NCBI GenBank assembly: GCA_040002535.1
Contig: JBDUEF010000003.1
Span: 1-46,360, forward strand
Source of the DNA: Actinomycetota bacterium
GTDB taxonomy: Bacteria; Actinomycetota; UBA4738; HRBIN12
DNA: 46,360 nt
Direction of reading: 5' to 3'
Positions 19,079 to 30,162 of the stretch are shown piece after piece. The notes under the pieces are model-generated. The model saw only the letters and a program-made list of their open reading frames with translations. It made no database searches and was not told the DNA's origin. The translations under genes and the position numbers were made by a program. Each line of letters starts with the position of its first letter. Position 1 is the stretch's first letter.

Positions 19079-19977
19079 GCGATGCGTCCGAGGAGCAGTC
19101 CGAGCACGAGCATGGCTCCGAACCCGGCCTCCAACGCGGCCGTGCCCGTCAGCACGGGGATCAGGTCACTCCCGGACGCCTCCCCGACGGTGTCCATCGG
19201 CGCGATCGCCAGGGGCCACGCGACCAGCGCCACCAACGCCCACTGCGTGATCCCGAGACCCTCGTTCGCCAGGAATACGACGACCCCCGCGCAGATCACG
19301 GCGAATGCGCCGACGATGCACGCGCGATACACCAGCCGGGTCCGGCGGTCCCCCAGCCGCACCGCCAGCGTGCGTTTGCCGGCCGCCTGGTCGGTGGGGA
19401 TGTCCCGAAGGTTGTTGGCGACCAGGATCGCCACGGCCAGCAGGCCGAGCGCCGTCCCCGACCACCACGCGGTCGCCGTCACCGTCCCGCCCGCGACGTA
19501 GGCGGTCCCGCAGGTGGCCATCAGCCCGAAGAACACGAACACCATCACCTCGCCGAGCCCGATCCCTGCGTAGGGCCGCGGGCCGCCGCTGTAGAGCAGC
19601 GCGGCCGCCAGGGCCAGCGCGCCGATCGCCAAGATCGGCACCGGAGCGGTGGCCAGCGCCAGCGCCAGCCCGACGACAGCCGCGACGCCCAGGCACCCGA
19701 GCGACGCCACCAACACGCTGCGCGCCGAGGCGGCCCCGCTGGCCACCAGCCGGGGTGGCCCGAGTCGCTCGGGCGTGTCCACACCCCGCACGCCGTCGAA
19801 GTAGTCGTTGGCGAAGTTCACGCCGAGCTGGAGGGCCACGGCCACCACCAGCGCGGCCGGGAACCGCCACCCCCATGGCGCGCTCCTGGCTGCGGCCGCG
19901 CCGACGAATACGGGGGTCACACCGGCGATCAGGGTGCGCGGGCGCGCGCCGCGCCACCACACGCCCGCTGCGCTCAC
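19075..19977 (-). CDS. menA: 1,4-dihydroxy-2-naphthoate polyprenyltransferase
   Basis: [53 protein letters not shown]; GTG 19977 overlaps the menB stop. Confidence 0.93.
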
Positions 19978-20786
19978 GGGCGCTTGGGGAACTTCGAGAA
20001 GTCCGGCGGTCGCTTCTGCACGTAGGCGTCGCGTCCCTCCTGCGCCTCCTCGCTCATGTAGTAGAGGAGCGTGGCGTCCCCGGCGAGCTGCTGCACGCCC
20101 GCCAGCCCGTCCACGGCGGCGTTGTATCCGGCCTTCAGGAGGCGGAGGGCCAGGGGAGACTCCGCCAGCATCTCCCGGCACCACTCGACGGTCGTGGACT
20201 CCAGATCCGCCAGAGGGACGACCGCGTTCACGAGTCCCCAGGCCAGCGCCGTCGGCGCGTCGTACTGGCGGCAGAGGAACCACACTTCCTTGGCGCGCTT
20301 CTCGCCGATCTGTCGAGCGAGCAGCGAGATCCCGTAGCCGCCGTCGAAGGAGCCGACCCGCGGCCCGGTCTGGCCGAAGCGCGCATTGTCGGCGGCGATC
20401 GTGAGGTCGCAACACAGGTGGAGGACGTGACCTCCCCCGATGGCATAGCCGGCCACCATCGCCACCACAGGCTTAGGCATCCGGCGGATCTGGATCTGGA
20501 GGTCGAGCACGTTCAGCCGCGCCGTCCCGTGCTCGTCGACGTAGCCGTCGTCGCCCCGGACCTTCTGGTCACCACCGCTGCAGAACGCGTCCGGGCCCTC
20601 GCCCGTGAGGACGATCACGCCGATCGCGGGATCGTCCCGGGCGACGTCGAAGGCGCGGATCAGCTCGGTGACCGTGAGCGGGCGGAAGGCGTTGCGGACC
20701 TCGGGACGCGCGATCGTGATCTTCGCGATCCCCGCAGCCGTCTCCGAACGGATGTCGGTGTAGCTGCCCGCCGGTTGCCAGTCCAT
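19974..20786 (-). CDS. menB: 1,4-dihydroxy-2-naphthoyl-CoA synthase
   Basis: [53 protein letters not shown]. Confidence 0.96.
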
Positions 20787-20846
20787 ATCGTTCGACCATC
20801 CACTCCGAGAGCCCGAACTCGTACGTTCCCGACTAGCCTATCGGAT

Positions 20847-22025
20847 GTGGGCAGAGGAGGGCACCTACCCAGCGGTCCCGGCGACCTGGTCGCCGTGGCG
20901 CTGCCGCCCGGACCTGCATGGATCGACGTCCTGGCCGACCTGTGGGCGGACGGCGCGGCGATCCTGCCGCTCGACCCCCGACTCGCAGCCTCGGAGACCC
21001 GTGCGATCATGGGCCTGGCGCGCCCAGGTGCGCTGCTCACCGCGGAGGGCGTCACCGCCCTGACGGAGACGGATGGCGTGGACCCCGGCGTCGGCCTGGT
21101 GCTGGCCACCTCGGGGACGGGCGGGCTGCCCAGGGTCGTGGAGCTCTCGCGCGGGGCGGTGGAGGCGGCGGTGCTCGGCTCGACACAGGCCCTCGGCGAC
21201 GGCCCCGACGGCCGGTGGCTCTGCTGCCTGCCGGTGGCGCACGTCGGCGGCATGTTGATCCTCATGCGCGGGCTGCTGACGGCGGCACCGGTCGAGGTGC
21301 ACCCACAGTTCGATCCCGCGGCGGTGGCGACCGCCGACGCCGATCACGTGTCGCTGGTTCCCACGATGCTGCACCGGCTGCTGACGACCGGCGTCGACCT
21401 GACACGGTTCCGAGCGATCCTCGTCGGTGGCGGCGCGATCGACGACGCCACGCGGCGATCGGCACGGGACCGTGGGGCGCGCGTCGTGGCGACGTACGGC
21501 CTCACGGAGAGCGCTGGCGGCGTCGCCTACGACGGCCAGCTGTTCGAGGGGTCGGCGGCCCGGATCGGTCCGGGCGGCGAGGTGCATCTGGCCGGACCGA
21601 CCCTGATGAGTGGCTACCGTGGGGACCCCTCGTCGACCTCGGCCGCGTTCACGCTGGACGGGTGGCTGCGCACCGGCGACGCCGGAACGCTGGGCGACGA
21701 CGGGCGCCTCCGGGTGCACGGACGCCTGGACGACTGCATCCTCACCGGGGCCGAGAAGGTGTGGCCGCAGGAGGTGGAGGACGCACTCCGTCGGCATCCA
21801 AAGGTCCACGAGCTCGCCGTCGCCGGCAGGCCCGACCCGGAGTGGGGGCAGCACGTGGTGGCGTTCGTCGTGCCAACGTCGCTCGACGATCCGCCGACGC
21901 TTGAGGAGCTGCGCGACCACGCCGCCGAGCGCATAGCAAGGTTCAAGATGCCGCGGGAGCTGGTGATGCTGCCAGCCTTGCCGCGAACACCATCCGGCAA
22001 GATCAGACGGGGTGAGCTCCGCTAG
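20847..22025 (+). CDS. menE: o-Succinylbenzoate--CoA ligase (AMP-binding enzyme)
   Basis: TSGTGGLP, LPVAHVGG, SLVPTML, TYGLTE, WLRTGD, GRLDD, GAEKVWP, LPRTPSGK; TAGCCT -10 lies 7 nt before GTG 20847; divergent from menB. Confidence 0.87.
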   Translation: MGRGGHLPSGPGDLVAVALPPGPAWIDVLADLWADGAAILPLDPRLAASETRAIMGLARPGALLTAEGVTALTETDGVDPGVGLVLATSGTGGLPRVVELSRGAVEAAVLGSTQALGDGPDGRWLCCLPVAHVGGMLILMRGLLTAAPVEVHPQFDPAAVATADADHVSLVPTMLHRLLTTGVDLTRFRAILVGGGAIDDATRRSARDRGARVVATYGLTESAGGVAYDGQLFEGSAARIGPGGEVHLAGPTLMSGYRGDPSSTSAAFTLDGWLRTGDAGTLGDDGRLRVHGRLDDCILTGAEKVWPQEVEDALRRHPKVHELAVAGRPDPEWGQHVVAFVVPTSLDDPPTLEELRDHAAERIARFKMPRELVMLPALPRTPSGKIRRGELR

Positions 22026-22139
22026 AACCCGTGGGGGTCTTGGCCCCACCGTCGTCTGAGCGAGGTTCGGCGCGAACGTGGGTTTCCCCATTCCGGGCGG
22101 CGGTGATTGCCACCACCGTGCATGCGGTAGGACCCACCC

Positions 22140-22255
22140 CCCGACCCGACCTACCCGCGGGTGGGGTAGCTCCGAAGCAAGCCGGAGGCCCGAGTCCGGG
22201 AGGGAGGACTCGGGCCTCCTGCGACAGGCGGCAACGCCGCACCTTCTCTGTCGGG
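22140..22255 (-). ncRNA. Candidate small RNA with a 14-bp hairpin and CU-rich anti-SD-like loop (boundaries and strand inferred)
   Basis: Perfect stem 22184-22197/22206-22219; on - it reads GGAGGCCCGAGTCC-TCCCTCCC-GGACTCGGGCCTCC; flanked by further hairpins in a 300-bp non-coding gap. Confidence 0.35.
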
Positions 22256-22292
22256 CTGAGCAAGGTTTCGGCCCCGCAGGGGGACGGGTGCA

Positions 22293-22308
22293 TACCCATC
22301 CTCGGGTA
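22293..22308. promoter_or_regulatory. NarL-type 7-2-7 inverted repeat
   Basis: TACCCAT-CC-TCGGGTA; the left arm fits the NarL heptamer TACYNMT; about 20 nt past the stop of a NarL-family regulator. Confidence 0.4.
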
Positions 22309-22327
22309 AAGGCGGCGCCCGGCTCGC

Positions 22328-22996
22328 TCAGACCGTGATGGCGCCGTGCTTGACGGCGAAGGCCACCGCCTCCAGCTTCGAGTGCACGCGCAGCTTGCCC
22401 AGGATGTTGCGGACGTGGGTCTGGACCGTCTGTGGGCTGATGAACAGCTTGCCGGCGATGTCGTCGTTGCGCAGTCCCTGGGCCAGCAGGTGCAGGATCT
22501 CCTGCTCCCTGTCGGTGAGGTCGTTCAGCAGCGCGTCCGCGCTGCTGCGGGCCTCGCGCTCGATCGCCACCTGGTGCAGGAGCCTTGTGAGGATCGTGGG
22601 GTCGATCAGGACCTCGCCGTCGGCGGCGGCCTTCACGGCGGCGAGGACTTCCCCGGCCGCCTCCTCCTTGCCCAGGAAGCCGGAGGCGCCCGCCTCCACC
22701 GCCTCCACGAGCAGCCGTTCGTCGTCGTGGGCGGTCATGATCACGACCTTCGTGGCCGGGGAGACCTCCTTGATCTTGCGGGTCGCCTCGATCCCGTTCA
22801 TGCCGCCCTTGAACATGATGTCCATGAGGACGACGTCGGGGAGCTGCTCGGCCGCCAGCGCGATGGCTGACTCCGCGTCGTGTACGGGCGGCCCCACCAG
22901 CAGGAGCTCGCCGTCACGCTCGACCACCATCGCGAGCGCGTCGGTAAGGATCTTGTGGTCGTCGCAGATGAGCAGGGAAACCTTGCGTTCGGGCAT
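22328..22996 (-). CDS. NarL/LuxR family response regulator
   Basis: ICDDH, VLMDIMF, MTAHDD, FLGK; HTH LTDREQEILHLLAQGLRNDDIAGKLFISPQTVQTH. Confidence 0.93.
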   Translation of the reverse strand: MPERKVSLLICDDHKILTDALAMVVERDGELLLVGPPVHDAESAIALAAEQLPDVVLMDIMFKGGMNGIEATRKIKEVSPATKVVIMTAHDDERLLVEAVEAGASGFLGKEEAAGEVLAAVKAAADGEVLIDPTILTRLLHQVAIEREARSSADALLNDLTDREQEILHLLAQGLRNDDIAGKLFISPQTVQTHVRNILGKLRVHSKLEAVAFAVKHGAITV

Positions 22997-24522
22997 CACC
23001 TATTGCCCTCCAACGGCAGATGGATCCGCAGCATCGTACCGCCCTCGGTGGCGTCCTCGATGGATATGGAGCCCCCATGGGCCAGGACGTGGGCTCGGCA
23101 GATGAACAGACCAAGACCGGTGCCGGGGATCTCCTCGTACCCCGCCGGGCGGAACTGGGCGAACCGTTCAAACGCCCCTGCTCGGTGCTCCGCCGCGATC
23201 CCGGGCCCGCGATCCAGCACCTCGATGACCGCATCGGCGCCCTCCCGCCGCGCGCGCACCACGATGGGCGCTCCACGGGGCGAGAAGTGGGCGGCGTTCT
23301 CCACGATCTGCGTGACGGTCTGTCCGATGCGCAGCCGATCGAGGGGCACGAGCACATCGGGCCGCGCCTCTACCTCGAGCGGATGGTCGCCGGCCTCTGC
23401 CTTCCTGATCCCGTCGCCCACCACCACGGCCAGGTCCTCCGGGCGGATGTCGTAGGCCAGCGTGCCGGCGTCGAGCGTCAGCGCGGTCGAGGTCTCATCC
23501 ACGATGCGCAGCAGCCGGCGCGACTCCTGATCGATCAACTCGAAGAACTCCTTCTTCTCCGCGTCGCTGAGTGAGTCGGCGTGGCGAGCGCCCGTGGTGG
23601 CGAGGCCCTTCACGGTGGTGACCGGGCTGCGCAGCTCATGCGCGATCATGGAGGCGATCTCGGCGCGGCCCTCGGTCACCTTCTGCGCACGATCGGTGGC
23701 GCGCCGCATGCGGGAGGCCTCCGTCCGTCCGGCGACCAGCATGCCGGTGAAGGCCAACCCAGCGGCCAGCGGCGGGAGGACCGCTCCCGGGATCAGGAGG
23801 GCACGGAACTGCACCGGCCAGGCCACGTACAGGATCAGCGCGCCGATCGCGACGATCCAGGCAGCGCCCAGCCACGCATGTTCCGTGTCAGGGCCCCGGG
23901 AAGCCAGCCGCTCGCGATGTCCGGCGACCCCCAGTAGTGCGACGGCTGCGACTCCCAGCACCCAGTGGAGCCACGTCGTGTGCCCGAACGGCCCGCCGGT
24001 GCGGAGCGCCGAGGGCGACACCGCCGCGAACGTCGTGCGGGTGAGCAGGAGCAGGAGATCCCCGGCGGCCAGCGCAACGGCCGCCAGACCCAGCACGGCC
24101 CGGGGTCGGGCGTGCGCCCTTCCGCGGCGATCCCACCACGGGTGGGCCAGTACGAAGCAGCCGCCGGCCAGCGCCCATGCCCACATCCAGGCCAGCGAGG
24201 GCAACGGCCGATCCTGCCATGCCGGGCTCCAGGGGCGGTCGGCCGCCAGGGCGGAGCCGGCGAACAGGAGCGTCTGCGTCGCAAGGATCGCGAAGCCAGC
24301 CCCCACCAGCAGGGCGTGGGGGTCGCGGCTGTCCCGATGCCGGGCCAGCGCCAGCGCGGCGGTGCCGGCCAACGCGGCCAGTGCGAACCCGTCGACGAGC
24401 TGCCGGCCGCCGAACGGCTGGTAGGGGTGCACCCCGGCGGTGGCGAGCATGCCTGCGGTGAGGATCCACGCGGCCACCAGCAGGGGCGTTGCGGTCGGGC
24501 GTCGTGCAGGCACGTCGGTCAC
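22996..24522 (-). CDS. Membrane sensor histidine kinase, HisKA type
   Basis: About 8 TM helices; H-box IAHELRSPV; N-box QIVENAAHFS; DRGPGI; GTGLGLFIC; TATGCT -10 lies 6 nt before GTG 24522. Confidence 0.88.
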   Translation of the reverse strand: MTDVPARRPTATPLLVAAWILTAGMLATAGVHPYQPFGGRQLVDGFALAALAGTAALALARHRDSRDPHALLVGAGFAILATQTLLFAGSALAADRPWSPAWQDRPLPSLAWMWAWALAGGCFVLAHPWWDRRGRAHARPRAVLGLAAVALAAGDLLLLLTRTTFAAVSPSALRTGGPFGHTTWLHWVLGVAAVALLGVAGHRERLASRGPDTEHAWLGAAWIVAIGALILYVAWPVQFRALLIPGAVLPPLAAGLAFTGMLVAGRTEASRMRRATDRAQKVTEGRAEIASMIAHELRSPVTTVKGLATTGARHADSLSDAEKKEFFELIDQESRRLLRIVDETSTALTLDAGTLAYDIRPEDLAVVVGDGIRKAEAGDHPLEVEARPDVLVPLDRLRIGQTVTQIVENAAHFSPRGAPIVVRARREGADAVIEVLDRGPGIAAEHRAGAFERFAQFRPAGYEEIPGTGLGLFICRAHVLAHGGSISIEDATEGGTMLRIHLPLEGNR

Positions 24523-24549
24523 CGCGCGAGCATAGGCCCCGTTGTCGAC

Positions 24550-24575
24550 CCTACCGGTAGTGGACCTACCGGTAG
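24550..24575. repeat. Two CCTACCGGTAG copies at 15-bp period, each containing the palindrome CTACCGGTAG
   Basis: Copies at 24550-24560 and 24565-24575; the second includes the panB stop codon. Confidence 0.7.
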
Positions 24576-30091: not shown

Positions 30092-30162
30092 AGCGGGCGA
30101 GGGGAATCGAACCCCCGTCTCGAGCTTGGGAAGCTCACGTTCTGCCATTGAACCACGCCCGC
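30092..30162 (-). tRNA. tRNA-Gly (anticodon CCC); CCA end not encoded
   Basis: Minus strand GCGGGCGTGGTTCAATGGCAGAACGTGAGCTTCCCAAGCTCGAGACGGGGGTTCGATTCCCCTCGCCCGCT folds as a cloverleaf with a TTCGA T-loop; followed by CCG. Confidence 0.95.

Follow-up and report, generated by a model that had tools for sequence, protein, structure and literature searches.

What is encoded in the 302-nt gap (positions 22026-22327) that lies between a menE-like gene on the plus strand and a convergent regulator and kinase gene pair on the minus strand, in a 46,360-nt stretch of DNA from an Actinomycetota bacterium (contig JBDUEF010000003.1; hereafter the window)? An earlier reading, made from the letters of the window without database searches (the sequence-only reading), had described the gap as dense with hairpins and had proposed an undescribed small RNA (sRNA) with a C-rich loop able to pair with Shine-Dalgarno (SD) sequences, transcribed as the output of the adjacent kinase and regulator. 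The four hairpins listed in that reading are all present. We find that the region containing the longest of them belongs to a family of single-copy elements that is confined to one family of uncultured soil Actinomycetota. On balance we think it probable that the gap encodes a minus-strand RNA of some 85 nt (approximately 22258 to 22172), which would share the build of 6C RNA, be activated by the regulator and act against SD sequences. The parts of this candidate RNA are the following.

22172 to 22258, minus strand: proposed body of the RNA (about 85 nt), its two ends predicted from the fold, from the match of our covariance model R1 at 22175-22273 and from a sub-threshold match of the Rfam 6C model at 22180-22242.

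22184 to 22219, minus strand: 3' hairpin of the RNA (hairpin 2, the main hairpin), 14 perfect pairs, GGAGGCCCGAGTCC / GGACTCGGGCCTCC, from sequence and fold; conserved in 74 of 74 aligned relatives.

22223 to 22252, minus strand: 5' hairpin GACAG..GCGGC-GUU-GCCGC..CUGUC, which has no C-rich loop and stands at the position of the C-rich-loop hairpin 1 of the relatives.

The loop of the main hairpin is 8 nt long and reads GGGAGGGA on the plus strand and UCCCUCCC, an anti-SD-like sequence, on the minus strand. Compared with shuffled sequences, the fold of the whole gap has a z-score of -2.3 on the plus strand and -2.8 on the minus strand, whereas the 87-nt core (22172-22258, minus strand) folds with -51 kcal/mol and a z-score of -4.44. 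The open reading frames (ORFs) within the gap have no Pfam match.

The hairpin region is kept in the genus of the window and in further genera of the same family. When the 223 genomes of the family were searched with a degenerate hairpin pattern, 75 gave exactly one match each; these belong to 8 of the 33 genera. The reversed pattern, run as a control, gave no match. In a public species collection the same pattern recovered 78 loci, nearly all of them titled as metagenome-assembled genomes (MAGs) of Actinomycetota or Actinomycetes. One further title reads merely "uncultured bacterium" (L106), and five off-target loci, in Kitasatospora, Streptomyces and MAGs labelled Acidobacteria, Gemmatimonadales and Chloroflexia, lack the surrounding features. 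From 74 distinct sequences we built a covariance model, R1, and searched 151 genomes sampled from the class with it. It matched 70, namely the genome of the window and 69 of the other 115 in its family (f1), and none of the 35 genomes from other families of the class. The R1-positive genomes span 14 genera, all in this one family of uncultured soil Actinomycetota. Three weak R1 hits elsewhere in the phylum fell in a coding region and on two ordinary terminators and were rejected as spurious. These pattern and R1 counts include genomes flagged as unpublished (G003, G152, G159, G160, G178, G179 and G225), and no conclusion rests on these alone.

One R1 hit was obtained in 68 of the 70 genomes, and the remaining two (G216 and G233) have a second, weaker hit of 38.6-41.7 bits. 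In G002 the element is found on two contigs (L006 on C6 and L014 on C3) with identical flanks, probably an assembly duplicate. The genome of the window (G000; 2.04 Mb in 147 contigs, 75% complete) contains a single occurrence of a 91-nt probe taken from the hairpin region, and its 14 perfect hairpins of at least 14 bp (loops of 3-12) include no two that are alike in sequence. A dispersed repeat of the repetitive extragenic palindromic (REP) type, which the sequence-only reading had named as an outcome that would overturn it, is refuted by this copy number: the element is unique in its own genome, occurs once in each of the 75 pattern-positive genomes, keeps the same neighbourhood, and the other long hairpins of the genome all differ from it. 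Nothing was found in favour of such a repeat, and we assign it next to no weight.

Covariation of the stems around an invariant loop had been proposed beforehand as a test of the RNA, and the alignment gave this result. RNAalifold predicts both hairpins, with 22 consensus pairs of which 13 show compensatory changes; in the main hairpin it is the outer pairs and one inner pair that covary. Pairing cells amount to 95.3%, against 86.1% in column shuffles, and the covariation score is 0.370 against 0.191 for the shuffled alignments and is reached by 0 of 500 shuffles, figures that overstate the significance because the sequences are phylogenetically related. When the partners were slid by one to three columns, the score did not exceed 0.116. 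The invariance of the loop and the inner stem is partly there by construction, because the collecting pattern fixed both in most of the aligned sequences, and only 14 loci that were found by the model escape this selection bias. In 10 of these 14 (genera g10, g11 and g37) the apical stems read GAGCGA/UCGCUC, GAGUCA/UGACUC and GAGCUC/GAGCUC, and yet neither the loop ACCCCUCCC nor the CCCCCUC core of loop 1 is altered. Locus L194 in genus g39 has the usual apical stem of the family, GAGUCC/GGACUC.

The alignment also settles which strand is the RNA strand. Read on the minus strand it holds 65 G-U or U-G cells against 14 A-C or C-A cells, R1 scores the window with 49.9 bits on the minus strand and 28.9 bits on the plus strand, and the relatives carry U-rich tails on the minus strand; because of these three observations the RNA is assigned to the minus strand of the window, as the sequence-only reading had preferred. 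That reading had also offered the converse, a function of the plus strand in which the loop GGGAGGGA would be a site for CsrA or another RNA-binding protein, to which one may add a terminator of the menE-like gene. In favour of it, the plus strand folds into the hairpin no less well, and the menE-like gene stands upstream, in relatives with its stop codon close by. Against this, no CsrA gene (PF02599) was found in the 75%-complete genome by a search whose controls were positive in Escherichia coli, Bacillus subtilis and Thermotoga, the strand evidence just given points the other way throughout, and in the window the hairpin stands 159 nt from the menE-like stop codon, which is followed by a hairpin of its own. 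We consider a function of the plus strand very improbable.

In most relatives the order along the minus strand is the regulator stop codon, a short spacer, a 16-bp palindrome, a short element CGA(A/T)(A/G), hairpin 1, hairpin 2 and a tail. The loop of hairpin 1 is ACCCCCUC (6 C) in most relatives and that of hairpin 2 is ACCCCUCCC (7 C), the counterpart of which in the window is UCCCUCCC (6 C). Many members have a spacer with a small extra hairpin between hairpins 1 and 2, and hairpin 2 is followed in the relatives by UUUC or UUUUC on the RNA strand. The number of C-rich loops is one, two or three across the genera. The genus of the window has kept hairpin 2, with a 5' hairpin that lacks the C-rich loop, as is also the case in G001, G002 and G003. 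The mirror image of this loss is seen in genera g38 and g44 (L193 in G106; L191 and L192 in G222 and G221), where the stem of hairpin 2 is kept with a loop that is not C-rich (UCGCCUUGC, ACGCUCUCGC) and hairpin 1 retains CCCCCUC. Five loci (L059, L063, L065, L076 and L111) have three C-rich-loop hairpins, ACCCCCUC twice plus ACCCUCCC or ACCCCUCCC, a subgroup that apparently arose by duplication of hairpin 1. Such a natural series of one-, two- and three-loop variants would be useful for asking what each loop does.

How does this family relate to RNAs that are already described? At the gathering threshold Rfam has no match in the gap. At relaxed settings 6C (RF01066) matches the gap best, with 26.1 bits (E 0.24) against a threshold of 47 over minus-strand positions 22180-22242; hairpin 2 is aligned well and hairpin 1 poorly. 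In four of 20 relatives' loci scanned, from relatives that have two C-rich loops, 6C scores 30.2-36.0 bits, still below the threshold, while a search of whole 3-kb loci of relatives gave no 6C match at E<=1, a negative that we attribute to the size of the search space, as the small loci later gave 30-36 bits. The models of two alphaproteobacterial families reach up to 35 bits (ar14, threshold 58.8) and up to 18.8 bits (CcsR1, threshold 65.3) in the relatives' loci. The term "undescribed" in the sequence-only reading therefore stands in so far as the element scores below the 6C threshold and lies outside the usual 6C neighbourhood, and has to be qualified in that its architecture and its best Rfam match are those of 6C, which had been cited as an analogy.

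6C-type RNAs are conserved across high-GC Gram-positive bacteria, and their controlling signal and purpose are only partly known. Like 6C (B11 in Mycobacterium tuberculosis, cgb_03605 in Corynebacterium glutamicum), the element occurs in Actinomycetota, measures about 80-100 nt and consists of tandem GC-rich hairpins with C-runs in their loops and, in the relatives, a short U-rich tail after the last hairpin. It differs in that its loops, ACCCCCUC and ACCCCUCCC, are C-runs interrupted by U, whereas those of 6C are runs of 6-8 C; in that many members have the spacer with the extra small hairpin and the number of C-rich loops varies from one to three; and in that its neighbourhood is a kinase/regulator operon and not a gene for a HAD hydrolase. 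6C is defined in PMC5014011 by at least six conserved cytosines in each of two loops within a stem-loop structure of about 80 nt. Most relatives have two such loops, while the window has six cytosines in the 3' loop and none in the 5' loop, GUU. The same paper describes the 6C promoter of C. glutamicum as a strong housekeeping promoter of the SigA/SigB type (PMC5014011), unlike the region upstream of our element, which has an operator-like palindrome and no good consensus promoter. On account of its score, its neighbourhood and the single C-rich loop of the window's copy, we have not filed the element as a member of 6C.

The CcsR (cuckoo) and alpha-r14 families of Alphaproteobacteria (RF02791, RF02344) offer a second comparison, as they share anti-SD loops of the CCUCCUCCC type and a variable number of hairpin modules. 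These families have several copies per genome, whereas our element is essentially single-copy, belongs to another phylum and scores far below the thresholds of both. Judged by its sequence and fold, the element is probably a divergent 6C-like anti-SD small RNA, the 6C-type RNA of this clade, in a new variant restricted to one family.

A closer relation would be that of a true 6C orthologue which moved from a HAD-linked site to the two-component locus and diverged past the Rfam threshold, so that the element would not have evolved independently. The phylum and the build are the same, and sub-threshold matches occur in both directions. The same two hairpins are seen in canonical 6C copies from other parts of the phylum, which score 70-92 bits in a mycobacterium-like family and 44-48 bits in a Streptomyces-like one, and R1 over its full length finds two of the mycobacterial-type loci, L135 with 33.2 bits and L132 with 21.3 bits. 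It has no match at the 6C positions of two others (L133 and L134) or of three Streptomyces-type loci, and the last of these negatives counts against orthology. In loci L132 and L136 a HAD gene (PF12710) adjoins the canonical 6C. Clear orthologues of this gene exist in the genome of the window and in five near-complete relatives (E 1e-78 to 1e-84), but a scan for a C-rich double hairpin beside them found none in the six genomes, although it recovered 6C in three positive-control loci. In a scan of the genome of the window for hairpins with C-rich loops, our hairpin ranks first and no other two-hairpin candidate appears. That no other 6C candidate was found in these scans, either in the genome of the window or beside the HAD orthologues, counts for orthology.

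The position of the HAD gene has a bearing on the same question: in G004, G012, G063 and G201 the element and the HAD orthologue lie on the same contig, 27-51 kb apart. A locus in another family of the phylum (L139 in G369) has a sub-threshold 6C match of 37.4 bits with likewise one C-rich loop, the loop of its second hairpin being UGAA; it is flanked by an amine oxidase gene and a thioesterase gene. Both observations can be counted for orthology. On the opposite side stand the scores of 26-36 bits, the different gene neighbourhood, and the alphaproteobacterial ar14 model, which scores about equally well, so that C-rich loops on GC stems seem to attract such models whatever the ancestry. A canonical 6C may also lie elsewhere in these genomes: direct whole-genome 6C searches gave no match in the 151 genomes of the class, but they scored only 26-150 candidates per genome and missed the window's own 26-bit match, and as their control, C. 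glutamicum, fell below threshold, these negatives are weak. Descent from 6C by relocation is in our view quite possible, if slightly less likely than not. The RNA family itself would go unannotated in these genomes because the 6C model scores it below threshold, and it is in fact missed by the current Rfam model.

If the gap encodes a 6C-like RNA, what would control it? The neighbouring genes and the further elements of the gap are the following.

22328 to 22999, minus strand: response regulator of the NarL/LuxR family (Pfam Response_reg and GerE), on the same strand as the RNA and directly upstream of it.

22996 to 24522, minus strand: sensor histidine kinase of the HisKA type (Pfam HisKA and HATPase_c), overlapping the regulator start; its GTG start at 24522 is a prediction.

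20805 to 22025, plus strand: menE-like AMP-binding gene (Pfam), convergent with the former two; its best NCBIfam match is o-succinylbenzoate-CoA ligase, at 240 bits below the cut-off of 345.

22293 to 22308, no strand: 16-bp palindrome TACCCGAGGATGGGTA (TACCCGA-GG-ATGGGTA), a candidate operator by its conservation and 7-2-7 geometry.

22263 to 22271, minus strand: -10-like element CCGAAACCT, conserved as CGA(A/T)(A/G) at a fixed spacing to the palindrome; a putative promoter element.

22151 to 22169, no strand: CTACCC/GGGTAG inverted repeat, found by motif scan to be a second copy of the palindrome, TACCC-N7-GGGTA (22152 to 22168), just past the 3' hairpin of the RNA.

22031 to 22049, plus strand: GTGGGG/CCCCAC hairpin, 6 nt past the menE-like stop codon and, from this position, probably the terminator of that gene.

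The best NCBIfam matches of the regulator are MadR and NarL, both below their cut-offs, and the UvrY/SirA/GacA family matches it with 113 bits, also sub-threshold (cut-off 280). Pfam searches of eight relatives' loci found the kinase and regulator upstream of the element in all eight and the AMP-binding gene on the other side in seven; in G001 a Peptidase_M73-like ORF takes the place of the menE-like gene. Upstream of the kinase there is a panB-like gene, both in the window and in six of the eight relatives examined (G001, G004, G008, G012, G063 and G201). In a larger set of 81 loci, of which a few are duplicated between two collections and 13 genuine ones have only 400 nt of flank with no regulator in it, 63 have the C-terminus of the regulator upstream in the same orientation, at a distance from hairpin 2 of 107-215 nt in 62 cases. 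The sequence-only reading had drawn its link to the kinase/regulator pair from a single locus, and this link is thus a conserved one.

The palindrome, which that reading had not listed, strengthens this link. Its form in the family is TACCCG-N4-CGGGTA, and it is located between the regulator stop codon and the hairpins. Of 59 unique intergenic regions, 34 contain the core TACC-N8-GGTA, compared with a mean of 0.18 and a maximum of 2 in shuffled sequences, and when added genera are included the count becomes 60 of 88 unique upstream regions. The half-sites are invariant in sequence and the spacer is free, which argues for a protein-binding DNA site rather than an RNA helix. The hairpin density of the gap accordingly needs a correction: all the repeats that had been listed are there, but the one at 22152-22168, together with the unlisted one at 22293-22308, represents copies of one DNA palindrome, TACCC-N6/7-GGGTA. 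This motif occurs three times in the genome of the window (at 22293, at 22152 and on contig C42), and G003 has a 7-2-7 copy at the place of the copy at 22152-22168. The third palindrome (C42, 1573-1588; L186) shares the extended flank CGGGTAAAGGCGGCGC with the copy in the window. Its neighbours are a small ORF lacking annotation and an ORF of 820 aa that matches VWA weakly, and the region has no Rfam match; this palindrome may be a further site for the same regulator.

The geometry of the palindrome is that of a NarL site. The window copy fits the 7-2-7 arrangement with halves similar to TACYYMT, the consensus of the NarL heptamer, which TACCC matches. CGA(A/T)(A/G) begins 22-23 nt past the palindrome in 28 of 60 regions and 45-47 nt past it in 22, with near variants in the other 10. 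If transcription starts about 12 nt past CGA(A/T)(A/G), the centre of the palindrome would be placed near -42 or near -66. As described in PMC7419079, a NarL 7-2-7 site consists of two 7-base inverted elements 2 bp apart, and NarL of E. coli activates transcription from -44.5 and -67.5. From these sequence features the RNA is probably the output of the adjacent two-component system.

Three other assignments of upstream motifs were considered. The conserved GGGTAT might be taken for a -10 element of the SigF/SigB type, but no GTTT-type -35 stands at a suitable spacing and the two halves of the palindrome are equally conserved, so that an operator is the preferred reading. CCATCC...CCGAAT resembles a mycobacterial promoter for an extracytoplasmic function sigma factor (SigK); a literature search gave no relevant result and we make no claim from this likeness. 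The TACCGGTA repeats upstream of the kinase were at first considered as autoregulation sites and were dropped because in the relatives they encode the C-terminal SYR and the stop codon of the panB-like gene that precedes the kinase. In the window CTACCGGTAG occurs twice within 24511-24560, the first time as the SYR-stop end of this gene. At the kinase promoter, TATGCT lies 7 nt upstream of the predicted GTG start at 24522, and the relatives have TACACT or TAGACT there, before GTG or ATG. This arrangement suggests that the mRNA of the kinase/regulator operon is leaderless, which would agree with the proposal of the sequence-only reading that the RNA spares leaderless mRNAs.

The arrangement recalls two groups of known systems. 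As in GacS/GacA-RsmY/Z, BarA/UvrY-CsrB and LuxO-Qrr (with qrr1 beside luxO), two-component systems that have an sRNA gene as their main output, a palindromic box precedes an sRNA gene that lies beside the regulator gene, and the regulator belongs to the NarL/FixJ family. The sequence of the box differs, however, and no CsrA was found in the 75%-complete genome; unlike the Rsm/Csr RNAs, which sequester CsrA through GGA motifs, the C-rich loops of our element point to base pairing. DapZ and MicL of enterobacteria are sRNAs derived from a 3' untranslated region (UTR) with an internal promoter. The element resembles them in that it would share a terminator with the upstream operon and has its candidate promoter near the end of the upstream gene, with the difference that this promoter would lie past the stop codon. 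Among the papers listed by a literature search, none ties 6C to two-component systems.

Could the element be no more than the end of the operon that precedes it? It might be an intrinsic and partly bidirectional terminator, or a 3' UTR that stabilises the kinase/regulator mRNA, with no trans-acting RNA. The element has the same orientation as the operon and starts about 100 nt past the regulator stop codon with no terminator between them, and in the relatives a U-rich tail follows hairpin 2. Hairpin 2 stands 15-30 nt from the stop codon of the facing gene in six of the seven relatives' loci that have the AMP-binding gene. Most other long perfect hairpins in the genome are presumably terminators. 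All this is as expected of a terminator, but other features are not. Both loops keep their C-runs over 14 genera while the stems change, whereas loops of terminators are normally not conserved, and a second and sometimes a third hairpin with a C-rich loop would be superfluous for termination. The palindrome and the -10-like element keep a constant spacing after the regulator stop codon, as for a separate promoter, and the element is still present where another gene precedes it, as in G002 and genus g44. In the window, finally, no U tract follows the main stem, a consensus scan found no terminator, and the facing gene has its own hairpin. We regard a terminator without an RNA as unlikely, though it is the main rival to our reading.

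A terminator role for both genes in addition to the RNA role, on the other hand, is likely, and the main hairpin of the window is probably a terminator as well. The sequence-only reading had set this hairpin apart from a simple terminator by its lack of a U tract and its distance of more than 100 bp from either stop codon. Both statements are correct for the window, the regulator stop codon being 109 nt away and the menE-like one farther still, as given above; it is the U-rich tail and the close spacing in the relatives that make an added bidirectional role likely.

Returning to a regulator-controlled, 6C-like RNA, we propose the following sequence of events. The phosphorylated regulator would activate the RNA's own promoter through the palindrome centred near -42. 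Read-through from the kinase/regulator operon may add to the RNA, as the stretch from the regulator gene to the RNA holds no terminator. By analogy with 6C, the C-rich loop would then bind to G-rich ribosome-binding sites in several mRNAs by base pairing, blocking their translation or changing their stability, and the last hairpin would double as the terminator. GGGAGGG, which is complementary to the loop UCCCUCCC, is a strong SD-type sequence and contains the core GGAGG. According to PMC6486639, 6C of M. tuberculosis and M. smegmatis uses its C-rich loops to pair with the G-rich ribosome-binding sites of mRNAs such as those of panD and dnaB, and represses translation without the need for a chaperone.

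Which mRNAs might be the targets here? A crude scan returned 15-17 plausible genes with GGGAGGG 3-11 nt before the start codon, among them, by Pfam, an amino-acid permease, Rho, glutamine synthetase, the large subunit of a NiFe hydrogenase and an Fpg-type glycosylase. GGGAGGG (15 cases) is no commoner ahead of plausible starts than GAGGGGG (15 cases), and the list provides leads only and singles out no target.

This last comparison is one of several points that weigh against the RNA as we describe it, besides the two limits of the covariation analysis. A search for sequencing runs covering 21500-23500 listed none of RNA. The window copy is the weakest member of the family, with an R1 score of 49.9 bits compared with 60-102 bits in the others, and has one C-rich loop and no U tract. 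Part of the conservation of hairpin 2 may reflect the terminator role, because this hairpin lies so close to the facing stop codon in the relatives. The link to the regulator has exceptions: in G002 and in genus g44 (L191 and L192) the element follows a gene ending in ...WEA(R/Q)N(Q/N)-stop, and genera g21 and g2 lack the palindrome and have other conserved upstream blocks instead, so that control by the regulator is not universal in its palindrome form. A scan of the gap for consensus sigma-70 promoters gave no hit, the -10-like element does not have the initial T of the TAnnnT that is present at the kinase promoter, and we infer the transcription start, the promoter and the operator from conservation. 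Should the RNA not be expressed, the finding would shrink to an unusually conserved terminator.

A more far-reaching version of the proposal would be a dedicated sensor-to-sRNA module, in which the RNA is the principal output of the kinase/regulator pair through the 7-2-7 box near -42 or -66, its anti-SD loops are modular (one, two or three), and the operon, being apparently leaderless, escapes its own RNA. We hold this version to be doubtful; if true, it would give 6C-type RNAs a defined upstream signal pathway. In the less specific form, one particular kinase/regulator pair and an operator-like box accompany a 6C-like RNA across 14 genera and about 70 species of abundant uncultured soil Actinomycetota, and this association offers a testable route from signal to RNA.

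Two minor observations concern the annotation of the window. The 906-aa ORF listed at 19305-22025 is a high-GC artefact, and the real AMP-binding gene is much shorter because its domains fill only the last 400 or so residues of that frame. A tRNA gene at 30092-30162 on the minus strand (67 bits) is the sole match in the window at the Rfam gathering threshold.

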